This document shows, one piece after another, positions 9,654-28,206 of a stretch of DNA of 29,033 nucleotides. Origin of the DNA: a virus (Duplodnaviria; Heunggongvirae; Uroviricota; Caudoviricetes). The stretch lies in the IMG/VR virus record IMGVR_UViG_2896607866_000010; one strand, 5' to 3'. The notes below the pieces were generated by a model that saw only the letters and a program-made list of their open reading frames with translations, ran no database searches and had not been told where the DNA came from. How positions within the stretch are numbered: position 1 is the stretch's first letter; each line of letters opens with the position of its first letter. The position numbers and the translations under genes are program-made.

Positions 9654-10559
9654 CTATATTTCCAGACATCTGTTATCACTTAACCCATTACAAGCCCGCT
9701 GCCGCAGATATTCCCGTGGCGAGCGATAACCCAGCGCACTATGCGGATGCCATTCGTTATAATGCTCGAACGCCTCTGCAAGGTTCTTTGCTGCCGTTAA
9801 CCCGTCTGGTTTGGGCATGATACTGATGTAGTCACGCTTTATCGTTTTCACGAAGCTCTCTGCTATTCCGTTACTCTCCGGACTCCGCACCGCCGTGTTC
9901 TTCGGTTCAAGTCCCAACATCCGGGCGAACTGGCGTGTTTCATTAGCCCGGTAGCATGAACCATTATCCGTCAGCCACTCCACTGGAGACGACGGAAGAT
10001 CGTTGCCGAAGCGGCGTTCCACCGCTCCCAGCATGACGTCCTGTACTGTTTCACTGTTGAAGCCGCCGGTAGTCACCGCCCAGTGCAGTGCCTCACGATC
10101 ACAGCAGTCCAGCGCGAACGTGACACGCAGTCTCTCTCCGTTATCACAGCAGAACTCGAACCCGTCAGAGCACCATCGCTGATTGCTTTCTTTCACGGCT
10201 ACTCTGCCTGTATGTGCCCGTTTCGATGGCGGTACAGCAGGTTTTCGCTCAAGCAACAGCGCATTCTGGCGCATGATCCGGTAAACACGTTTGGCATTGA
10301 TCGCAGGCATACCATCAAGTTCTGCCTGTCTGCGAAGCAGCGCCCATACCCGACGATAACCATACGTGGGCAGCTCTCCGATAACATGGTGTATACGGAG
10401 AAGCACATCCGTATCATCAGTGTGACGACTGCGGCGGCCATCCATCCAGTCATCGGTTCGTCTGAGAATGACGTGCAACTGCGCACGCGACACCCGGAGA
10501 CAACGGCTGACTAAGCTTACTCCCCATCCCCGGGCAATAAGGGCGCGTGCGCTATCCAC
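9654..10559 (-). CDS. insD: IS2 transposase OrfB (InsD)
   Basis: 301-aa ORF with IS3-family DDE motifs; A6G slippery site at 10559-10565 on the minus strand. Confidence 0.9.
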
Positions 10560-10882
10560 TTTTTTGCCCGTCCATATTCAACGGCTTCTTTGAGGAGTTC
10601 ATTTTCCATCGTTTTCTTGCCGAGCAGGCGCTGGAGTTCTTTAATCTGCTTCATGGCGGCAGCAAGTTCAGAGGCAGGAACAACCTGTTCTCCGGCGGCC
10701 ACAGCAGTAAGACTTCCTTCCTGGTATTGCTTACGCCAGAGAAATAACTGGCTGGCTGCTACACCATGTTGCCGGGCAACGAGGGAGACCGTCATCCCCG
10801 GTTCAAAGCTCTGCTGAACAATTGCGATCTTTTCCTGTGTGGTACGCCGTCTGCGTTTCTCCGGCCCTAAGACATCAATCAT
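10517..10882 (-). CDS. insC: IS2 transposase OrfA (InsC)
   Basis: 121-aa ORF starting [12 protein letters not shown] at ATG 10882. Confidence 0.85.
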
Positions 10883-10973
10883 CTGTTCTCCAATGACTAG
10901 TCTAAAAACTAGTATTAAGACTATCACTTAAATAAGTGATACTGGTTGTCTGGAGATTCAGGGGGCCAGTCTA

Positions 10974-11641
10974 ATTGCCGCATCATCATCAGACTCCGGA
11001 ACGCCCTCATACACATGTTTAAAACCATCCGGATCACGGCGTCGCGCCGCGTCGATAACCTTAAGCATGGTGTCAGACAGAAACGGATTTTCGTCATAGT
11101 TAATTTTGCGGATGAGAGTGCCTTCGGGCGGATCAACAACGAAGTTGCGCCAGACGAAATCAGTAACAAGTCCGGGGTTGAATATGAACCAGCATTCCGA
11201 ACCCTCTTTACGGATCGTTGGCTCCAGAATTTTCCACTGGTATTCCGTCAGTGCGTGGGCTTCTTCCAGCCACAACACATCGATCCCCTCCAGTGACTTA
11301 ATTTCTTCGATGTTGCGCCATAATCCATAAAAAACAAATTCCGAGCCAGTAACCCGGTTAATGATTTTGTTGTTCAGAATACGGAAACGGTGCCGCAGAC
11401 CAAACCTGTCTATCTGAATTTTGAGCAGGGTATACACCGACTCTTCGATTTTATTCTGGATCTGACGGGCACAACAAAAACGCAGGGTGTATTTATTCGA
11501 CAGAAATATGGCAATGCCAGCGGCATCCCATGATTTTGACGATGACCGACCACCATAAAGCACTTTGTTACGTGCCCGCATAGTCCAGAAACTACGTAAA
11601 GCCGGATTCAGCGTCGGTTTGGATGTCAGAGTAGAAGTCAT
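10974..11641 (-). pseudogene. terL: terminase large subunit, N-terminal (ATPase) fragment interrupted by IS2
   Basis: Walker A-like LYGGRSSSKSWD motif; start ambiguous (ATG at 11641, 11659 or 11668, all overlapping the terS 3' end); frame runs into IS2 at 10973. Confidence 0.7.
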
Positions 11642-12356
11642 TGAGGTCACGCTCTCCATTGCCATCATCAATACCTGCATCACGGCGAAGACGATCAGCC
11701 TCCAGAGACACCTTATCAGTGGCGGCCTTGCGGTAGGCTGTATCAGCAAATATTTTTCCTACCGTCGCAAGCGTGCCAACGATGGACTCAATACGAACTG
11801 TATTGCGCATCATTGCTTTCTCGGCGGCGCTGATATTTTCAATCAGCATCTTCCTTTCCTGGTCCCCATTAGCATCTTCCAGCGACACCAACCACCGACC
11901 AATATTCTCTGCAGCGACAAGGTTGTTAGCACGAAGGCGAAATAATTCGTCCTCGAGCGTCAACGCTTTAGCGTCCTCTATCACCTCATCTTTGAGCAGA
12001 AGGCGACGGGCATAACCACCGTGTTTTAATGCCTGCTGGTTACCGGGTTGGAATGGGTTAGTCGGGGGATCGGTACGCATTCCGCGTATCGGTTTCGTAT
12101 CCGGTGTAGATTCTGTTTTTAGTTGCGTACTTTTTTGTGTAAGGCCAGTAATGGCAGGCTTTCTGCTGGTACGCACTTTCCTTTTTTGCGTACCATTTTT
12201 GCAAACCTGCGTACCGCCACTGCGTGCCCAACCAAGCTTTTTGGCCCTCTTCCTGATAGCCCCTTCTGTAACGCCGTATTTCTCGCCTATATCACGGAGG
12301 CTAAGGACTCCGGCCCGGTATGCCGATTCGATGGCCTCCCAGTCCGGTTTTGCCAT
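11592..12356 (-). CDS. terS: terminase small subunit
   Basis: 254-aa ORF with SD AGGAAG; N-terminal HTH-like segment; directly upstream of and overlapping terL. Confidence 0.65.
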   Translation of the reverse strand: MAKPDWEAIESAYRAGVLSLRDIGEKYGVTEGAIRKRAKKLGWARSGGTQVCKNGTQKRKVRTSRKPAITGLTQKSTQLKTESTPDTKPIRGMRTDPPTNPFQPGNQQALKHGGYARRLLLKDEVIEDAKALTLEDELFRLRANNLVAAENIGRWLVSLEDANGDQERKMLIENISAAEKAMMRNTVRIESIVGTLATVGKIFADTAYRKAATDKVSLEADRLRRDAGIDDGNGERDLNDFYSDIQTDAESGFT

Positions 12357-12489
12357 GATTATGCTTCCTGTGATTTACTGTTATCGCTGCCTGTCACAAT
12401 AGGTTGCTTTAATTCTTTGAAGTGGCACACTGAATTTGGCCACCTGAACAGAGGTGATATGCTCACCTCAGAACAACACAGGTGCTCCA

Positions 12490-13658
<1,169 letters not shown>

Positions 13659-13805
13659 CCACTTCACTTCCTCATCACTCACTCCTGCGACGCTCCGTGG
13701 CAGGGCCCCCCACAGGAGTACCTTGTAAATGTAAGGTGTTTAAGCCTAAATTAAGTCGTATCACGGTTAAATAGCAAAGAAAAATTCACAGAAGGAAAGA
13801 CATTG

Positions 13806-14315
13806 ATGGAGTGGATAAATGCTTTGATGAACTATTTTGTACTTCATCCATATCGCCTATGGGGGCTTCTTTTTATAATAGCGTTCACAAAATCCACTTT
13901 ACTCATTTCGGCGATATTGCCACCAGCATCAATTATGATGGCCACTGTAATTACAGTCAGCAAGACGACTCTTTCACCATGGGAAGCTGGAATCACGGTC
14001 ATGAGTGGCGCATGGTGCGGTACTATCGTTAATTACCATCTTGGTATAATAATTGGGCATATCCCTCAACTTGCATGTATAATATCGAGCCGTTCCAATA
14101 CAATAGAACGGGTTCGCCTTCAGTTGCAAAATAACTCTGTGTCAATACTTTTCACTTCGCGCTTTATCGCCGTGCTGCGTTACATTGCTCCTTTGGTGGC
14201 AGGAATGTTGCAACTTCATCCAGTGAAAGTGTATACAGTGAGTCTGATTTCAGCTGCTAGCTGGTCAGCACTTTATGTTGGTAGTTTTAGCTTCGTGTTG
14301 CCTTTTTTTAGCTAA
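13806..14315 (+). CDS. YqaA/DedA-superfamily-like small inner-membrane protein (tentative)
   Basis: About 169-aa ORF with SD GAAGGAAAG; several hydrophobic segments; segments resemble E. coli YqaA as recalled (ILPPASIMMATVI vs LLPGNSEVVLVAM; AVLRYIAPLVAG vs GKALRYVAVAAA). The gene is visibly AT-rich compared with the flanking phage DNA. Confidence 0.4.
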   Translation: MEWINALMNYFVLHPYRLWGLLFIIAFTKSTLLISAILPPASIMMATVITVSKTTLSPWEAGITVMSGAWCGTIVNYHLGIIIGHIPQLACIISSRSNTIERVRLQLQNNSVSILFTSRFIAVLRYIAPLVAGMLQLHPVKVYTVSLISAASWSALYVGSFSFVLPFFS

Positions 14316-14403
14316 ACTGCCCATAAAAAGCTCTTGCGAATCCAGCTTCCCCCATTCCTCTGACAACAGAATCTGATTTGAAGGATAATGAGTAAAATTA
14401 CCG

Positions 14404-14622
14404 CTACCCCCCAAGGCATTGGATCCTGATGTACTCCTGAAGCATTCTCAATGCTGTCTGGTCGCTGATGGGGCGCTTACCCAGAAGCAGACTTCCCAGC
14501 ACACCAATCGCAGCCCACTGTGATGGACTGACCTGATCCAACCACTGCAAAAACCAGTAGCCGGCACTGCCGGCGGAGGTGCCGTAGGCAATGCCTGTTG
14601 ATATTTTTTCCATCTGATACAT
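14404..14622 (-). CDS. class II holin of the 933W S-type, with a divergent C-terminus (possibly a remnant)
   Basis: N-terminal [10 protein letters not shown]...[25 protein letters not shown] matches the 933W-type holin as recalled; the C-terminal 20 or so residues do not; no endolysin or Rz genes follow. Confidence 0.5.
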
Positions 14623-15303
14623 ATCCCGCCCCCCCGACAGACCTGTGCTATCGGAAAGAAAAAAGGCCATCAGCAAAACTCTGATGGCCTGAATCACCTT
14701 TACCAATATTGTATGAAAAAACACGCACGACTAATTGACAATAATTTTCATTTCCATTAAAAAAGATCGCGTAGCATTCTTAATTCATGAGGAACTTTAC
14801 CCGCCAGCAATCTGAGTAGCGAAAGCTGTTCATCCCCAATGTTTTTGCTGGCGGGTCCTTTTTTCTACGGTCCTCCTCCCCTGAGGGGGGCATTTCATTA
14901 TTTTTCTAATCGTTACTGGTGAGAAGGCGGAAGAAAAAGCCAGTTCTTCGTCCCTAAATAACAGCATGATTCCAGTCCATGCAAAATCTGATTTCCAGCT
15001 CACACATACCGAGTACTGTACAAAAAACAGCCAACCAAGGCAGTTAAGAGTGTGTTCCCGGGGTTTGCTTAGAATATTTTGTAAGTTGTCCGAAGAGATA
15101 TTTACAACACCAGAATGATGCATTATCAGTCCCCTGCCAGAGGTTCACTACGTAACCTGACCGACAATGCACCATTCTGGTGCTGAAAAAAGAGCACTGG
15201 AACTGCAACAAAACAACATCACAGAACAGGAGATGGTAAGGAGTCAGACATTCCCACACAATATTGTGTCAGTGCAAATAACAACCTTCGTCTCAAATCT
15301 CGC

Positions 15304-15378
<75 letters not shown>

Positions 15379-15381
15379 ATA

Positions 15382-15456
<75 letters not shown>

Positions 15457-15458
15457 GC

Positions 15459-15535
15459 TGGCCCACCACCGAGGACTCGAACCTCGCACCGTCAACTTAG
15501 AAGGTTGATGCTCTATCCGGATGAGCTAGTGGTGG
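15459..15535 (-). tRNA. tRNA-Arg (anticodon UCU), phage argN/argU-like
   Basis: Cloverleaf with anticodon loop CUUCUAA, T-loop TTCGAGT, acceptor CCACCAC/GTGGTGG and encoded CCA; unusual C at position 1. Confidence 0.7.
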
Positions 15536-15536
15536 T

Positions 15537-15613
15537 TGGTGGCCCTTGCTGGACTTGAACCAGCGACCTGGCGATTATGAGTCGCTCGCTCTGACCAACT
15601 GAGCTAAAGGGCC
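15537..15613 (-). tRNA. tRNA with CAU anticodon, most similar to tRNA-Ile2 (ileX/ileZ-like); Met not excluded
   Basis: Cloverleaf with acceptor GGCCCTT/AAGGGCC, anticodon loop CUCAUAA, T-loop TTCAAGT and encoded CCA; resembles E. coli ileX as recalled. Confidence 0.75.
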
Positions 15614-15701
15614 GGAGGCAGAATAATAACCATATGTCATCACATCTGCAAACTCATCTGACCACCAGCACGTTTAACGTCCTGTGCCGTTTTTCAGGTA
15701 T

Positions 15702-15723
15702 AAAAAAACCCGCATAAAGCGGG
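15702..15723 (-). terminator. rho-independent terminator downstream of Q (tR'-like)
   Basis: Minus-strand hairpin CCCGC-TTTAT-GCGGG followed by seven T residues, about 80 nt after the Q stop and just before the tRNA array. Confidence 0.6.
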
Positions 15724-15802
15724 CTCTTTCAAATGTCCATGTCTGCTATTCGCCTCGCGGTACAGCTTTGCGAAGCGTACAAGAATTGAAGCAGTTTTTA
15801 CG

Positions 15803-16357
15803 TCAAAAAGCAATAACTTTTTTCTCTATACCAAAAGCCATAACCATTGGTTTGTACAAAATAAATTCTGCCACCTTTAGCCAATGCTCAATGCGTCTTT
15901 CACAGGTTCTTAAACTCCATTTCGGGTGTGCATCATTCAGCAGTTCAGCCATTTTGCGTTTGGTCATCCCCCGCCCCTCATAGCGTTGCCGAAGGACGCT
16001 AATCAATCCTGGATGCTCTGCCAGCACCTCACTTATGACCCGATCAATACATAACGCCTCTGCATCAGTACAATGCGCCAGCCAGCTCTTTTGCTTACCG
16101 TTAATCATATCCCGCAAAAAAGCCTCAAGTTCAGACTTGTTCAGACCTGCTTTTTTCATCCTCCGGAGCGCCTCGTTAATTGCCGTTTTTGTCAGCTTTT
16201 TAGAGGTCAACATCAGGTTAAACATATTCCCCGTCTTACCGCCACCAATATACGACCAGCGCCCCCACATACGTAGTTTTCCCTGAATCCAGACACTTTC
16301 CAGCGTGGTGAGACGAAGGTGTTCTCCGCTTTTTCCTGTATTCGTTGGGTAAATCAT
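15803..16357 (-). CDS. putative late-gene antiterminator Q
   Basis: 184-aa ORF with strong SD AAGGAGG and ATGA overlap with the upstream gene; located immediately before a tR'-like terminator, tRNA genes and the holin, the canonical Q position. Family assignment from recall, not verified. Confidence 0.5.
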   Translation of the reverse strand: MIYPTNTGKSGEHLRLTTLESVWIQGKLRMWGRWSYIGGGKTGNMFNLMLTSKKLTKTAINEALRRMKKAGLNKSELEAFLRDMINGKQKSWLAHCTDAEALCIDRVISEVLAEHPGLISVLRQRYEGRGMTKRKMAELLNDAHPKWSLRTCERRIEHWLKVAEFILYKPMVMAFGIEKKVIAF

Positions 16358-16644
16358 AAATATCCCTCCTTTCTCCAGATTTCTTGTGTGCGAAAAACAC
16401 CTTCTGCATGCATCAGGCGTAATTCTTCTTTGGTGTAATCGCTGGTTTTTACCCGCCCGTCGATTAAATCGTGGCACGAGCTACAGGCAATCGCTGCCTG
16501 CATATCGTGTGGCTTTATCGCTGTTCCGCACGTTCCCGCCAGTCGGTAATGCGCCAGCACAGACGTTTCCGGATCGTGATTGCAGTAGCCAGGAATTCTG
16601 ACGGTGCACATCTGCCCCCGCGCCGCTTTAAGTAAATCCACCAT
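16354..16644 (-). CDS. YbcO-like protein (DUF1364, putative nuclease) of the nin region
   Basis: 96-aa ORF with Cys pairs (CTVRIPGYC and CSSCHDLIDGR) resembling DLP12 YbcO as recalled. Confidence 0.5.
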   Translation of the reverse strand: MVDLLKAARGQMCTVRIPGYCNHDPETSVLAHYRLAGTCGTAIKPHDMQAAIACSSCHDLIDGRVKTSDYTKEELRLMHAEGVFRTQEIWRKEGYL

Positions 16645-18201: not shown

Positions 18202-18888
18202 TCACTCCTTCTCTTCTTTACCGTAGTGGAGTTGACCAATTTTGATAAGAGGGCGTCCCTGAGATTTGCGGTGTAGATTGGTATCGCGCAGAGAATACAC
18301 ACAGCCACAATATTCCTGCTGATAGAATTTTTCGCGCTTGCTGATTTCAATCATACGGGACGAGCCGCCCTGCTTGCGCCAGTTATAATCCCAGTACACC
18401 ATGCCCGGATAATGCGCGACGGCTCGCCGCCCACAGTCGTTAACCTGCTGCATATTTTTCCAGCGTGAAATGCCCAGTGAACTGCTGATCACACTGAAAC
18501 CATTTTCAGCGGCGTACAGCGCTGTCCGCTCAAAACGCATGTCAAAACACATGGTGCAACGGATCCCTCGTTCGGGCTCCCATTCCATTCCTTTGGCTCG
18601 TTCAAACCAGTTGTCTGTGTCGTAATCAGCATCAATAAACGGCACGCCGTGTTGTTCAGCAAAGCGAATATTCTCATCCTTACGAATTAAATACTCTTTC
18701 TGAGGATGAATGTTCGGGTTGTAGAAAAAGATGGTGTAGTCGATTCCCGAGGCCTGAAGCGCCTCCATCACCTCACCGGAACATGGAGCACAGCAAGAGT
18801 GCAGTAGTAGTTTGTTTGCCCCGTTTGGGAGCTCCAATTTGGGCCGTTTGAAATCAGCAACTGTCATAAATATGTTTATTGGGGTCAT
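18202..18888 (-). CDS. QueH-like protein (DUF208, epoxyqueuosine reductase family), tentative
   Basis: 228-aa ORF with the characteristic Cys motifs: HSCCAPC near the N-terminus, RCTMC in the middle and YCGCVYS near the C-terminus. No obvious SD; alternative ATG at 18867. Confidence 0.55.
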
Positions 18889-20960: not shown

Positions 20961-21032
20961 TGAAGTGGCACACTGAATTTGGCCACCTGAACAGAGGTGA
21001 TATGCTCACCTCAGAACAACACAGGTGCTCCA

Positions 21033-22201
<1,169 letters not shown>

Positions 22202-24673: not shown

Positions 24674-25579
24674 CTATATTTCCAGACATCTGTTATCACT
24701 TAACCCATTACAAGCCCGCTGCCGCAGATATTCCCGTGGCGAGCGATAACCCAGCGCACTATGCGGATGCCATTCGTTATAATACTCGAACGCCTCTGCA
24801 AGGTTCTTTGCTGCCGTTAACCCGTCTGGTTTGGGCATGATACTGATGTAGTCACGCTTTATCGTTTTCACGAAGCTCTCTGCTATTCCGTTACTCTCCG
24901 GACTCCGCACCGCCGTGTTCTTCGGTTCAAGTCCCAACATCCGGGCGAACTGGCGTGTTTCATTAGCCCGGTAGCATGAACCATTATCCGTCAGCCACTC
25001 CACTGGAGACGACGGAAGATCGTTGCCGAAGCGGCGTTCCACCGCTCCCAGCATGACGTCCTGTACTGTTTCACTGTTGAAGCCGCCGGTAGTCACCGCC
25101 CAGTGCAGTGCCTCACGATCACAGCAGTCCAGCGCGAACGTGACACGCAGTCTCTCTCCGTTATCACAGCAGAACTCGAACCCGTCAGAGCACCATCGCT
25201 GATTGCTTTCTTTCACGGCCACTCTGCCTGTATGTGCCCGTTTCGATGGCGGTACAGCAGGTTTTCGCTCAAGCAACAGCGCATTCTGGCGCATGATCCG
25301 GTAAACACGTTTGGCATTGATCGCAGGCATACCATCAAGTTCTGCCTGTCTGCGAAGCAGCGCCCATACCCGACGATAACCATACGTGGGCAGCTCTCCG
25401 ATAACATGGTGTATACGGAGAAGCACATCCGTATCATCAGTGTGACGACTGCGGCGGCCATCCATCCAGTCATCGGTTCGTCTGAGAATGACGTGCAACT
25501 GCGCACGCGACACCCGGAGACAACGGCTGACTAAGCTTACTCCCCATCCCCGGGCAATAAGGGCGCGTGCGCTATCCAC
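24674..25579 (-). CDS. insD: IS2 transposase OrfB (InsD), copy 2
   Basis: 301-aa ORF, one amino-acid difference from copy 1 (H to Y near the C-terminus). Confidence 0.9.
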
Positions 25580-25902
25580 TTTTTTGCCCGTCCATATTCA
25601 ACGGCTTCTTTGAGGAGTTCATTTTCCATCGTTTTCTTGCCGAGCAGGCGCTGGAGTTCTTTAATCTGCTTCATGGCGGCAGCAAGTTCAGAGGCAGGAA
25701 CAACCTGTTCTCCGGCGGCCACAGCAGTAAGACTTCCTTCCTGGTATTGCTTACGCCAGAGAAATAACTGGCTGGCTGCTACACCATGTTGCCGGGCAAC
25801 GAGGGAGACCGTCATCCCCGGTTCAAAGCTCTGCTGAACAATTGCGATCTTTTCCTGTGTGGTACGCCGTCTGCGTTTCTCCGGCCCTAAGACATCAATC
25901 AT
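25537..25902 (-). CDS. insC: IS2 transposase OrfA (InsC), copy 2
   Basis: Identical product to the copy 1 InsC. Confidence 0.85.
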
Positions 25903-25993
25903 CTGTTCTCCAATGACTAGTCTAAAAACTAGTATTAAGACTATCACTTAAATAAGTGATACTGGTTGTCTGGAGATTCAGAGGGCCAGTCTA

Positions 25994-27702: not shown

Positions 27703-28206
27703 TTACTGATAGTGTTTTATGTTCAGATAATGCCCGATGACCTTGTCATGCAGCTCCACCGATTTTGAGAACGACAGTGACTTCCGTACCAGCCTTGCCA
27801 GATGTTGTCTCAGATTCAGATTATGTCGCTCAATGCGCTGAGTGTAACGCTTGCTGATAACGTGCAGCTTTCCCTTCAGGCGTGATTCATACAGCGGCCA
27901 GCCATCCGTCATCCATACCACGACCTCAAAGGCCGACAGCAGGCTCAGAAGACGCTCCAGTGTGGCCAGAGTGCGTTCACCGAAGACGTGCGCCACAACC
28001 GTCCTCCGTATCCTGTCATACGCGTAAAACAGCCAGCGCTGACGTGATTTAGCACCGACGTAGCCCCAATGTTCGTCCATTTCAGCGCAGACAATCACAT
28101 CACTGCCCGGTTGTATGCGCGAGGTTACCGACTGCGGCCTGAGTTTTTTAAGTGACGTAAAACCGTGTTGAGGCCAACGCCCATAATGCGTGCACTGGCG
28201 CGACAT
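27703..28206 (-). CDS. insB: IS1 InsB (transposase C-terminal part)
   Basis: 167-aa ORF matching IS1 InsB as recalled. Confidence 0.9.

Follow-up and report, generated by a model that had tools for sequence, protein, structure and literature searches.

A DedA-family gene, a lysis-cassette deletion and an IS911 insertion at the late-gene junction of a Shigella-type lambdoid prophage that is defective

In lambdoid phages of the phage 21/DLP12 type the lysis cassette consists of an S21 pinholin with a 71/68 dual start, the endolysin R21 or RrrD and the spanin genes Rz/Rz1. In phage 21 itself S21-71/68, the SAR (signal-anchor-release) endolysin and the i- and o-spanin are followed, 32 nt after Rz, by bor on the opposite strand. 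Lysogenic-conversion genes typically occupy this slot, which follows Rz directly and lies on the opposite strand. DedA proteins have been connected with the recycling of undecaprenyl phosphate, with resistance to polymyxin and with envelope homeostasis. Here we describe a DedA-family gene in this slot. It lies in a DNA stretch of 29,033 nt (IMG/VR: IMGVR_UViG_2896607866_000010), called the window throughout. The window is the remnant of a lambdoid prophage read on the minus strand, with ipaH and many insertion sequence (IS) elements. The late-gene junction of this defective prophage has very probably been shaped by three independent events, namely the capture of the DedA gene as a moron, a deletion in the lysis cassette and an insertion of IS911.

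Relatives of the window were found by megablast against complete E. coli genomes, among them E. coli FDAARGOS_943 (L001) and an O121 strain (L002). In the relatives the query is split by about 960 extra bases, which are annotated as 'lysozyme RrrD' and 'lysis protein'. Pairwise mapping showed that window 11188-12417 corresponds to L001 2774-4003 with 99.8% identity, 13667-14470 to 4001-4804 with 99.9% (coordinate offset of 9666 across the DedA region) and 14480-15760 to 5775-7054 with 98.8%. L002 has the same gene order as L001 (Table 1). As judged from this comparison, the ancestral order in phage direction is Q, tRNAs, S21-type pinholin, SAR endolysin RrrD, Rz/Rz1, opposite-strand short DedA gene, small terminase (TerS) and large terminase (TerL). 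The lysis genes of the relatives thus follow the order of the phage 21/DLP12-type cassette, and they are about 92% identical to the phage 21 cassette in nucleotide sequence. An earlier reading made from the window's letters alone, here called the sequence-only reading, had described the holin as 933W-type, a label for which phage-21-type S21/R21/Rz cassette is the better name. Unlike phage 21, the slot downstream of Rz is occupied by the DedA gene and not by bor.

Bases 4805-5774 of L001, 970 bp in total, are absent from the window, and the comparison establishes the deletion itself. It removed holin codons 49-71, the whole of rrrD and 404 nt from the 5' end of Rz. What is left of Rz is a 3' piece of 67 nt, which includes 23 nt of Rz1, and neither an endolysin nor an Rz/Rz1 gene was found in the window, as the sequence-only reading had stated. 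This reading had also noticed that the holin N-terminus is intact and its C-terminus divergent. Residues 1-48 indeed agree fully with the class II holin of L001 (71 aa) and residues 49-72, 24 in all, differ, the tail of the resulting open reading frame (ORF) being the residues KRP followed in frame by the C-terminal 21 residues of Rz. The match to the P21 holin S profile (PF04971) covers positions 1-44 and ends at position 44 of 64. In common with phage 21-type cassettes, the window retains the dual-start 5' end of the holin gene, the N-terminal SAR-type transmembrane domain (TMD1) and an upstream terminator-like hairpin. The complete TMD2 and the charged cytoplasmic C-terminal tail are not retained, and of the cassette, unlike in phage 21, what is left is holin codons 1-48 joined to Rz codons 136-156. 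In the chimaera TMD2 has a hydrophobic run of about 13 residues instead of about 23, and the peak 15-residue hydropathy has decreased from 2.0 to 1.2. In S21 pinholins it is TMD2 that forms the hole. With its TMD2 halved the chimaera should therefore be unable to act as a holin, and the 72-aa ORF is, by its sequence, almost certainly non-functional in this role. Since R and Rz/Rz1 are gone as well, the prophage would be unable to lyse its host. The same 1.2-kb cassette is broken by IS elements in other strains at at least seven positions (breakpoints at L001 4738, 4805, 4905, 4983, 5592, 5695 and 5724), which shows that loss of lysis is recurrent in this prophage.

Between the two flanks of the deletion there is a scar of nine bases that no relative has. 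On the phage strand the junction reads ...CTGCTTCTGG-GTAAGCGCCC-CATCAGCGAC-CAGACAGC.... Nucleotides 1-20 of ISSfl3, GTAAGCGCCCCATCAGCGAC, match the window from 14480 down to 14461 at 20 of 20 positions (E=6.6e-5). This match is flush with the IS terminus, lies exactly at the junction and is the top hit of the full IS against the whole window in a short-word BLAST search. The same 20 nt are the beginning of an IS66-family element that lies beside the same prophage genes in three other loci (L018, L024 and L031) and that is 99.7% identical to ISSfl3 according to the RefSeq annotation. Furthermore, the 10-mer CATCAGCGAC, nucleotides 11-20 of ISSfl3, is also genuine Rz sequence (L001 4795-4804). 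This suggests that ISSfl3 once resided in the holin gene and was lost by a microhomology deletion, a mechanism that we infer from the junction. ISSfl3 would have inserted after holin codon 48, and a later deletion between the direct copies of CATCAGCGAC, one within the IS (nt 11-20) and one near the 3' end of Rz, would have removed ISSfl3 (about 2.75 kb) except for its first 10 nt, together with holin codons 49-71, R and most of Rz/Rz1. In Shigella the expansions of IS1, IS2, IS600, IS911 and ISSfl3 drive prophage decay, and here too the same prophage is struck at many positions across strains. Unlike in the usual IS decay, the IS itself is gone from the window, and what remains is a terminal scar of 9-10 nt and a microhomology junction.

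Several observations weigh against this role of ISSfl3. A holin gene interrupted at this site by the complete ISSfl3 with its 8-bp duplication was not found with a 321-nt composite query in ecoli_genomes, as an exact 38-mer in genome_contigs or in 57 loci, Shigella assemblies being outside the reach of these DNA searches. The window's own junction was not detected in any second genome by an exact 25-mer search of the 57 loci, genome_contigs, metagenome_contigs and viral_contigs, and the fused ORF, looked up as 72, 69 and 106 aa, is not on record. Moreover, 10 of the 20 matching bases are Rz sequence too, so the independent evidence amounts to 9-10 bases, and 11 nt (GGGGCGCTTAC) are common to the other, right end of ISSfl3, so it is not certain which end left the scar. 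The literature on ISSfl3 contains passing mentions only. The missing intermediate and the small number of bases independent of Rz would both be expected if the junction came from a plain illegitimate-recombination deletion with nine untemplated filler bases that resemble ISSfl3 by chance. We regard this as distinctly unlikely, because the match starts at nucleotide 1 of the IS exactly at the junction, with 20 of 20 bases, as the best IS-to-window hit and at the E-value given above, because ISSfl3 has been active in the same prophage region of the three other loci, and because a flush 9-mer match to one of about 20 IS termini has a probability of about 1e-4 by our own estimate. The junction might also be an artefact of assembly, for example a collapse in an IS-rich Shigella genome whose true cassette is intact or interrupted by an IS. 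Its uniqueness in every collection searched and the presence of at least six IS copies in the window would agree with this. Collapses, however, need long repeats, whereas here there are just 10-20 bp of IS sequence with unique sequence on both flanks, and both reading frame and microhomology look as in a true deletion, which makes an artefact very improbable. A third explanation, implied by the sequence-only reading, is that IS911 mediated a deletion by which R/Rz were lost and the foreign DedA gene came in as their replacement. IS911 does adjoin the AT-rich gene, as this reading had reported, its right end being 136 bp upstream of the DedA start. The explanation is nevertheless extremely improbable, as the DedA gene is found at the same position beside intact R/Rz in many relatives with or without IS911, IS911 in the window has both of its ends and a perfect 3-bp duplication at a target that is contiguous in L001, and the junction is 804 bp away and carries the terminus of ISSfl3 instead of that of IS911.

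The arrangement in the relatives is clear on this point. The DedA gene adjoins intact R and Rz in 10 of 10 TerS-anchored places and also in several DedA-anchored places; the TerS-anchored sample is less biased than the DedA-anchored one, but it is a small sample in which one lineage predominates. TerS was counted in 5,111 collection blocks and the exact DedA protein in 5,113, nearly equal numbers. Because relatives with flanks of 99.7-99.9% identity carry the DedA gene beside an intact holin-RrrD-Rz cassette, it is not a replacement for R/Rz but was resident before they were lost. The claim that foreign DNA had been acquired thus stands in so far as the DedA gene is compositionally foreign, and fails in that it neither arrived with the deletion nor replaced R/Rz. 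Likewise, of the proposed IS-associated deletion the part that stands is that an IS, ISSfl3, probably took part, while IS911 is excluded as the cause.

The insertion of IS911 itself is simple. The element is complete, with the ends TGAAGTGG...CCACTTCA, and the L001 target is contiguous (...AATTCTTCCTCATC...), whereas the window has CTT on both flanks. Both ends, the 3-bp duplication and a contiguous target with no adjacent loss indicate a simple transposition. IS911 sits in the intergenic spacer between TerS and the DedA gene and points toward the latter, its right end being 64 bp outside the conserved DedA cassette. The deletion junction is on the far side of the DedA gene, so a clean IS911 at that distance is not what caused the deletion. 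IS911 has thus transposed cleanly into the spacer with CTT duplication, as an event separate from the deletion. A DedA promoter that would use an outward-facing -35 element of the right end of IS911 was rejected, because the would-be -10 (CTCACT) is poor. An IS911 insertion is also found in the Rz gene of another IMG/VR contig, L036 (UViG_2877285697_000008; 5660-5670 and 9245-9260), at the TGA triplet L001 4802-4804, which coincides with the window's left deletion breakpoint; in L036 the segment adjoining the insertion is inverted between two IS911 copies. An IS911 origin of the window's junction was rejected since only 'TG' is shared with the IS911 end, and the common triplet is either a coincidence or a local hotspot.

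The DedA gene lies on the opposite strand to the late operon and is AT-rich, as had been noted from the sequence. Its GC content is 42.1% (39.8% at third codon positions) against a window mean of 50.2%, which places it in the lowest 3.4% of 513-bp windows, about 1.9 standard deviations from the mean, a real but modest deviation. It is the core of a cassette of 595 bp, in which the ORF is preceded by 72 bp, counted to the TTG at 13803 (75 bp to the ATG at 13806), and followed by 10 bp. L001 4065-4659 is 82.5% identical over 595 nt to 5927-6520 of a Citrobacter youngae prophage (L003) and 82.4% identical to 4927-5520 of an IMG/VR contig (L037), and the flanks are unrelated. In the C. youngae prophage the DedA gene is also on the opposite strand, just after the lysis genes holin_8/holin_3_7 and GH19 and before a lambda-like DUF1441/GpA terminase. 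There, a 128-bp relic of an R21-type endolysin 3' end (L003 5800-5927) directly abuts the DedA cassette; it is 81% identical to L001 5215-5342, encodes ...KINQGD.KGAC.QLRRWTYAGGKQWKGL.TRREIEREVCLWG and is followed by an i-spanin-like ORF, the working lysis genes of this prophage being of the other, GH19 type.

The cassette shows what is expected of a moron: it is present or absent between homologous phages, it has a deviant GC content (42% vs 50%) and it occurs in unrelated backbones. Among 50,697 phage records there is no close DedA homologue, the best match having 30% identity, and phages in these records with an about 92% identical lysis cassette also lack the DedA gene. By position and composition it is a compositionally foreign moron in the slot directly downstream of Rz, the bor slot of phage 21. 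The sequence-only reading would have been contradicted by a normal conserved gene of ordinary composition, and the first half of this applies, since the DedA gene belongs to the related lysis modules as a regular, conserved component; its composition is not ordinary. Like the lambdoid morons bor (lambda and phage 21) and lom, it is a small opposite-strand cassette of deviant GC content between the lysis and packaging modules, patchy among related phages and moving between unrelated backbones. Unlike bor and lom, it encodes a probably polytopic inner-membrane protein and not an outer-membrane lipoprotein, and neither a promoter nor a terminator was clearly detected for it.

Homologues outside prophages are found in Citrobacter meridianamericanus (74% identity), Citrobacter amalonaticus (57%), an enterobacterial metagenome contig (52%) and Arsenophonus (43%). 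By this comparison the AT-rich 595-bp cassette entered lambdoid phages in an old capture, and its source was probably a Citrobacter-like chromosome. Upstream of the gene, the Shigella and Citrobacter copies have a conserved block of 22 nt, ATCACGGTTAAATAGCAAAG. Shigella flexneri, Shigella sonnei, Shigella dysenteriae and E. coli all have the identical protein. For the prophage copies of Shigella and Citrobacter the ratio of nonsynonymous to synonymous substitution rates (dN/dS) is 0.24, and in comparison with the chromosomal copies it is 0.15, which indicates that the gene is under purifying selection. In two lineages, Arsenophonus and an enterobacterium, the chromosomal short DedA gene adjoins mgtE in differing orientations (L008 6001-8050 and L011 4512-6537). 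A study of Klebsiella pneumoniae reportedly ties DedA proteins to divalent-cation homeostasis (PMC10846249).

The 169-aa protein matches the VTT/DedA family (PF09335) with E=9.2e-14 and 52.4 bits, compared to a cut-off of 33.9, and its residues 41-161 correspond to profile positions 3-121 of 123. It is strongly hydrophobic, with a grand average of hydropathy of 0.87, only 12 charged residues out of 169 and hydrophobic segments throughout. The identity to E. coli K-12 DedA, YqjA, YohD and YghB is 22-25%, the closest being DedA and YqjA at about 23-24% (E-values of 2e-9 and 2e-8). No BLASTP hit was found to YqaA, so the description as YqaA/DedA-like holds for the VTT/DedA domain, which is closer to DedA/YqjA, and not for YqaA. 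In YqjA, YghB and DbcA the residues E39, D51, R130 and R136 are reported to be needed, and a role of YqjA S52 has been described (PMC6849406; bioRxiv 10.64898/2026.09.20.752871). In UptA, R112, R118 and E32 contribute to the binding of undecaprenyl phosphate (C55-P; PMC11474028). R119 and R125 of the prophage protein, within FTSRFIAVLRYIAP, correspond to the arginine pair of the second re-entrant loop, YqjA R130/R136 and UptA R112/R118. They do not vary within the clade and can be aligned with YqjA, YghB and DedA, and S42 aligns with YqjA S52. Besides the full-length VTT match, the arginine pair and S42, the protein would share with DedA-family members such as YqjA and UptA the helix-P-P-helix re-entrant signature and the hydrophobic all-helical character. 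Unlike YqjA, it is carried by a prophage and ends about 50 residues earlier, without the last, C-terminal helix. A sequence search of the PDB found no solved homologue, and nothing relevant on a prophage-borne or Shigella DedA protein was found in the literature. Outside the short clade, DedA-PAP2-LssY_C fusions of about 670 aa (P0049, P0052, P0054 and P0061) are frequent among the nearest relatives, and their architecture hints at lipid-phosphate metabolism.

On these features the prophage DedA is most likely an inner-membrane lipid-handling protein of DedA type that is expressed in the lysogen. We infer that it keeps the headgroup-binding part of the DedA mechanism, the arginine pair by which UptA and YqjA bind an anionic lipid headgroup or undecaprenyl phosphate, but lacks the part proposed for proton coupling. 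It may work as a facilitative flippase or scramblase, uncoupled, for lipids or lipid carriers, or as a lipid-binding partner of host DedA dimers, with expression from the lysogen as for bor. There is evidence that speaks against such a function. K29 and A41 stand at the positions of YqjA E39 and D51, so the membrane-embedded acidic pair needed by YqjA is absent. The NCBIfam equivalogs are missed, with 31 vs 236 bits for NF008102 (PRK10847) and 19.9 vs 250 bits for NF052604 (UptA). A consensus scan of 13667-13802 gave no convincing sigma-70-like site, so expression in the lysogen is assumed, and a scan after 14315 found no terminator for the gene. Moreover, the AlphaFold2 model, built on an alignment of 14 sequences, is of low confidence (mean predicted local distance difference test score, pLDDT, of 58.9); it is all-helical with a helix-break-helix at P39-P40, in a topology that is unreliable at this score.

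The missing acidic residues and the undetected promoter could point to a functionless hitchhiker, an inactive relic that has not yet been hit by an IS. That the gene has been spared by IS hits is an argument that we down-weighted, since loci retrieved via the intact protein are skewed toward intact copies. We nevertheless consider a hitchhiker unlikely. The motifs K-S-T and L-P-P-A-S are invariant in all members of the short clade, including distant relatives of about 170 aa from an exhaustive search of 1.84 billion representatives (15 proteins at E<=1e-10), and they are shared by the chromosomal Citrobacter and Arsenophonus genes, which argues for a trait of the subfamily and not for decay; the outgroup next to the short clade retains the glutamate. 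The dN/dS values of 0.15-0.24 also speak against a relic, as does the intact gene in all ten TerS-anchored places next to a lysis cassette with at least seven breakpoints. Another possibility is that the protein acts on phage biology, in superinfection exclusion or lysis timing, for example by buffering membrane energisation against pinholin triggering. The position of the gene directly after two unrelated lysis cassettes, in the Shigella and the Citrobacter prophages, and the R21-type endolysin relic that abuts it in Citrobacter would favour this. It is quite improbable in view of the opposite orientation, which sets the gene apart from the late operon, the generic nature of the bor/moron slot and the retention of the gene where the lysis cassette is dead; furthermore, PADLOC gave no defence-system hit for the protein. 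Returning to a lipid-handling protein of the lysogen, a further-reaching and unlikely version would make the short 'K/A' clade a functionally distinct branch of the DedA superfamily, either an uncoupled scramblase of polyprenyl-phosphate or anionic lipids or a dominant partner that forms heterodimers with host YqjA/YghB. It would have been spread by phages from Citrobacter to all Shigella lineages and enteroinvasive E. coli (EIEC) as a conversion factor that alters lipid-carrier recycling and is kept by selection during the decay of the remaining prophage. If this were true, the clade would alter the supply of O-antigen and enterobacterial common antigen, or the tolerance to cationic peptides or bile.

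The remainder of the window agrees with this setting. The prophage is of Shigella/EIEC type, defective and decaying. Its ipaH gene marks the element as one of the chromosomal 'ipaH island' prophages of Shigella/EIEC. In the E. coli collection, the closest matches are strains with large plasmids (about 260-295 kb) in which ISSfl3 and IS600 abound, which suggests that these strains are enteroinvasive. Besides the genes in Table 1, the window encodes capsid, portal and Mu-F-like genes. An IS2 copy splits TerL, in line with IS-driven decay in Shigella, and since it is at the same place in L001 the packaging defect was already present in a common ancestor. Further IS copies are IS2 (24674-25947), IS911 (about 20997-22201) and IS1 (about 27703-28206). 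TerS is the left neighbour of the DedA cassette in relatives without interruption. The Q-like gene is located upstream of the late operon, and upstream in phage direction there are also replication and immunity genes, copies of IS911, IS2 and IS1 and an integrase fragment.

The hairpin upstream of the holin may, by analogy with the layout of phage 21, be a late-operon terminator of tR' type that is read through by Q. The annotation of L001 carries the same cluster of four tRNAs. The tRNA with the CAT anticodon (15537-15613, minus strand) is called 'Met' by ARAGORN and tRNA-Ile by RefSeq in the relatives; it is probably a lysidine-modified tRNA of Ile2 type. Between the tRNA cluster and the holin there is an AT-rich interval of about 580 bp (14725-15303), in which the relatives annotate no gene and whose sole ORF is of 97 aa (14830-15123, minus strand). 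In Shiga toxin (Stx) phages this interval is the position of stx. A further accessory gene of this phage is that of an epoxyqueuosine reductase, QueH (18202-18888, minus strand; PF02677, E=2e-65), with the nin-like region on one side and the replication genes on the other; L001 has it annotated as well, beside hokD.

Table 1. Features of the window and, where marked, of the relative L001 (E. coli FDAARGOS_943)
Feature	Coordinates	Strand	Basis or remark
IpaH-type type III effector (LRR_TTSS + NEL E3 ligase)	1-1812	+	E=2e-75; far end of prophage
IS2 splitting TerL	9654-10927	-	Between TerL fragments 8902-9669 and 10958-11749
TerS, 254 aa	11592-12356	-	PHROG 370 'terminase small subunit', E=7.5e-95
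CTT target duplication, left and right copies	12415-12417; 13667-13669		Junction compared with L001
IS911 (IS3 family), complete, orfA + orfB	12418-13666	+	99.0% identical to annotated IS911 of L002
DedA moron cassette (probable Citrobacter-like origin), 595 bp	13731-14325	+	Stretch common to Shigella and Citrobacter prophages
Short DedA/VTT-family membrane protein gene, 169 aa	13806-14315	+	PF09335; RefSeq start TTG 13803 gives 170 aa
Rz i-spanin 3' remnant, last 21 codons + stop, including last 23 nt of embedded Rz1	14404-14470	-	L001 mapping
Chimaeric 72-aa ORF: holin 1-48, KRP from scar, Rz 136-156 in frame	14404-14622	-	Translations compared
9-base scar GGGCGCTTA (as on plus strand)	14471-14479	-	No relative has these bases; probable remnant of the ISSfl3 terminal inverted repeat
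S21-type pinholin 5' part, codons 1-48, M1/M4 dual start	14480-14622	-	L001 mapping, PF04971
Terminator-like hairpin + T-run	14664-14690	-	10-pair stem, 6 GC pairs, then TTTTTTCTTTC; just upstream of holin
tRNA cluster: Gly-tcc, Thr-tgt, Arg-tct, CAT anticodon	15304-15613	-	ARAGORN; between Q and holin
Q-like late antiterminator (DUF1133/Phage_antitermQ)	15803-16477	-	PF06576, E=4e-107; PF06530, E=1.7e-6
L001: TerS, 254 aa		-	RefSeq order, first gene
L001: DedA	4137-4649	+	RefSeq
L001: lysis protein/Rz	4738-5208	-	RefSeq
L001: rrrD	5205-5702	-	RefSeq
L001: class II holin	5702-5917	-	RefSeq; followed by tRNAs and Q

The decay of this prophage is ordinary for Shigella, and the footprint of ISSfl3 is a neat detail of it. 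The junction can serve as a worked example in which the 'filler' at a deletion is readable as the footprint of a lost IS, here an ISSfl3 terminus with a 10-bp microhomology, where the scar would easily be misread as random. Reading such footprints may be useful for reconstructing genome reduction in Shigella. The DedA gene in the bor slot encodes an unstudied, phage-disseminated member of the DedA family and is a modest but testable lead. Its short clade replaces the supposedly essential acidic pair by K and A and keeps the lipid-phosphate-binding arginines, and it thereby offers a natural test of the role of the acidic pair. Given the link of DedA proteins to envelope functions, a horizontally acquired variant in a major enteric pathogen would be a cheap experimental target.

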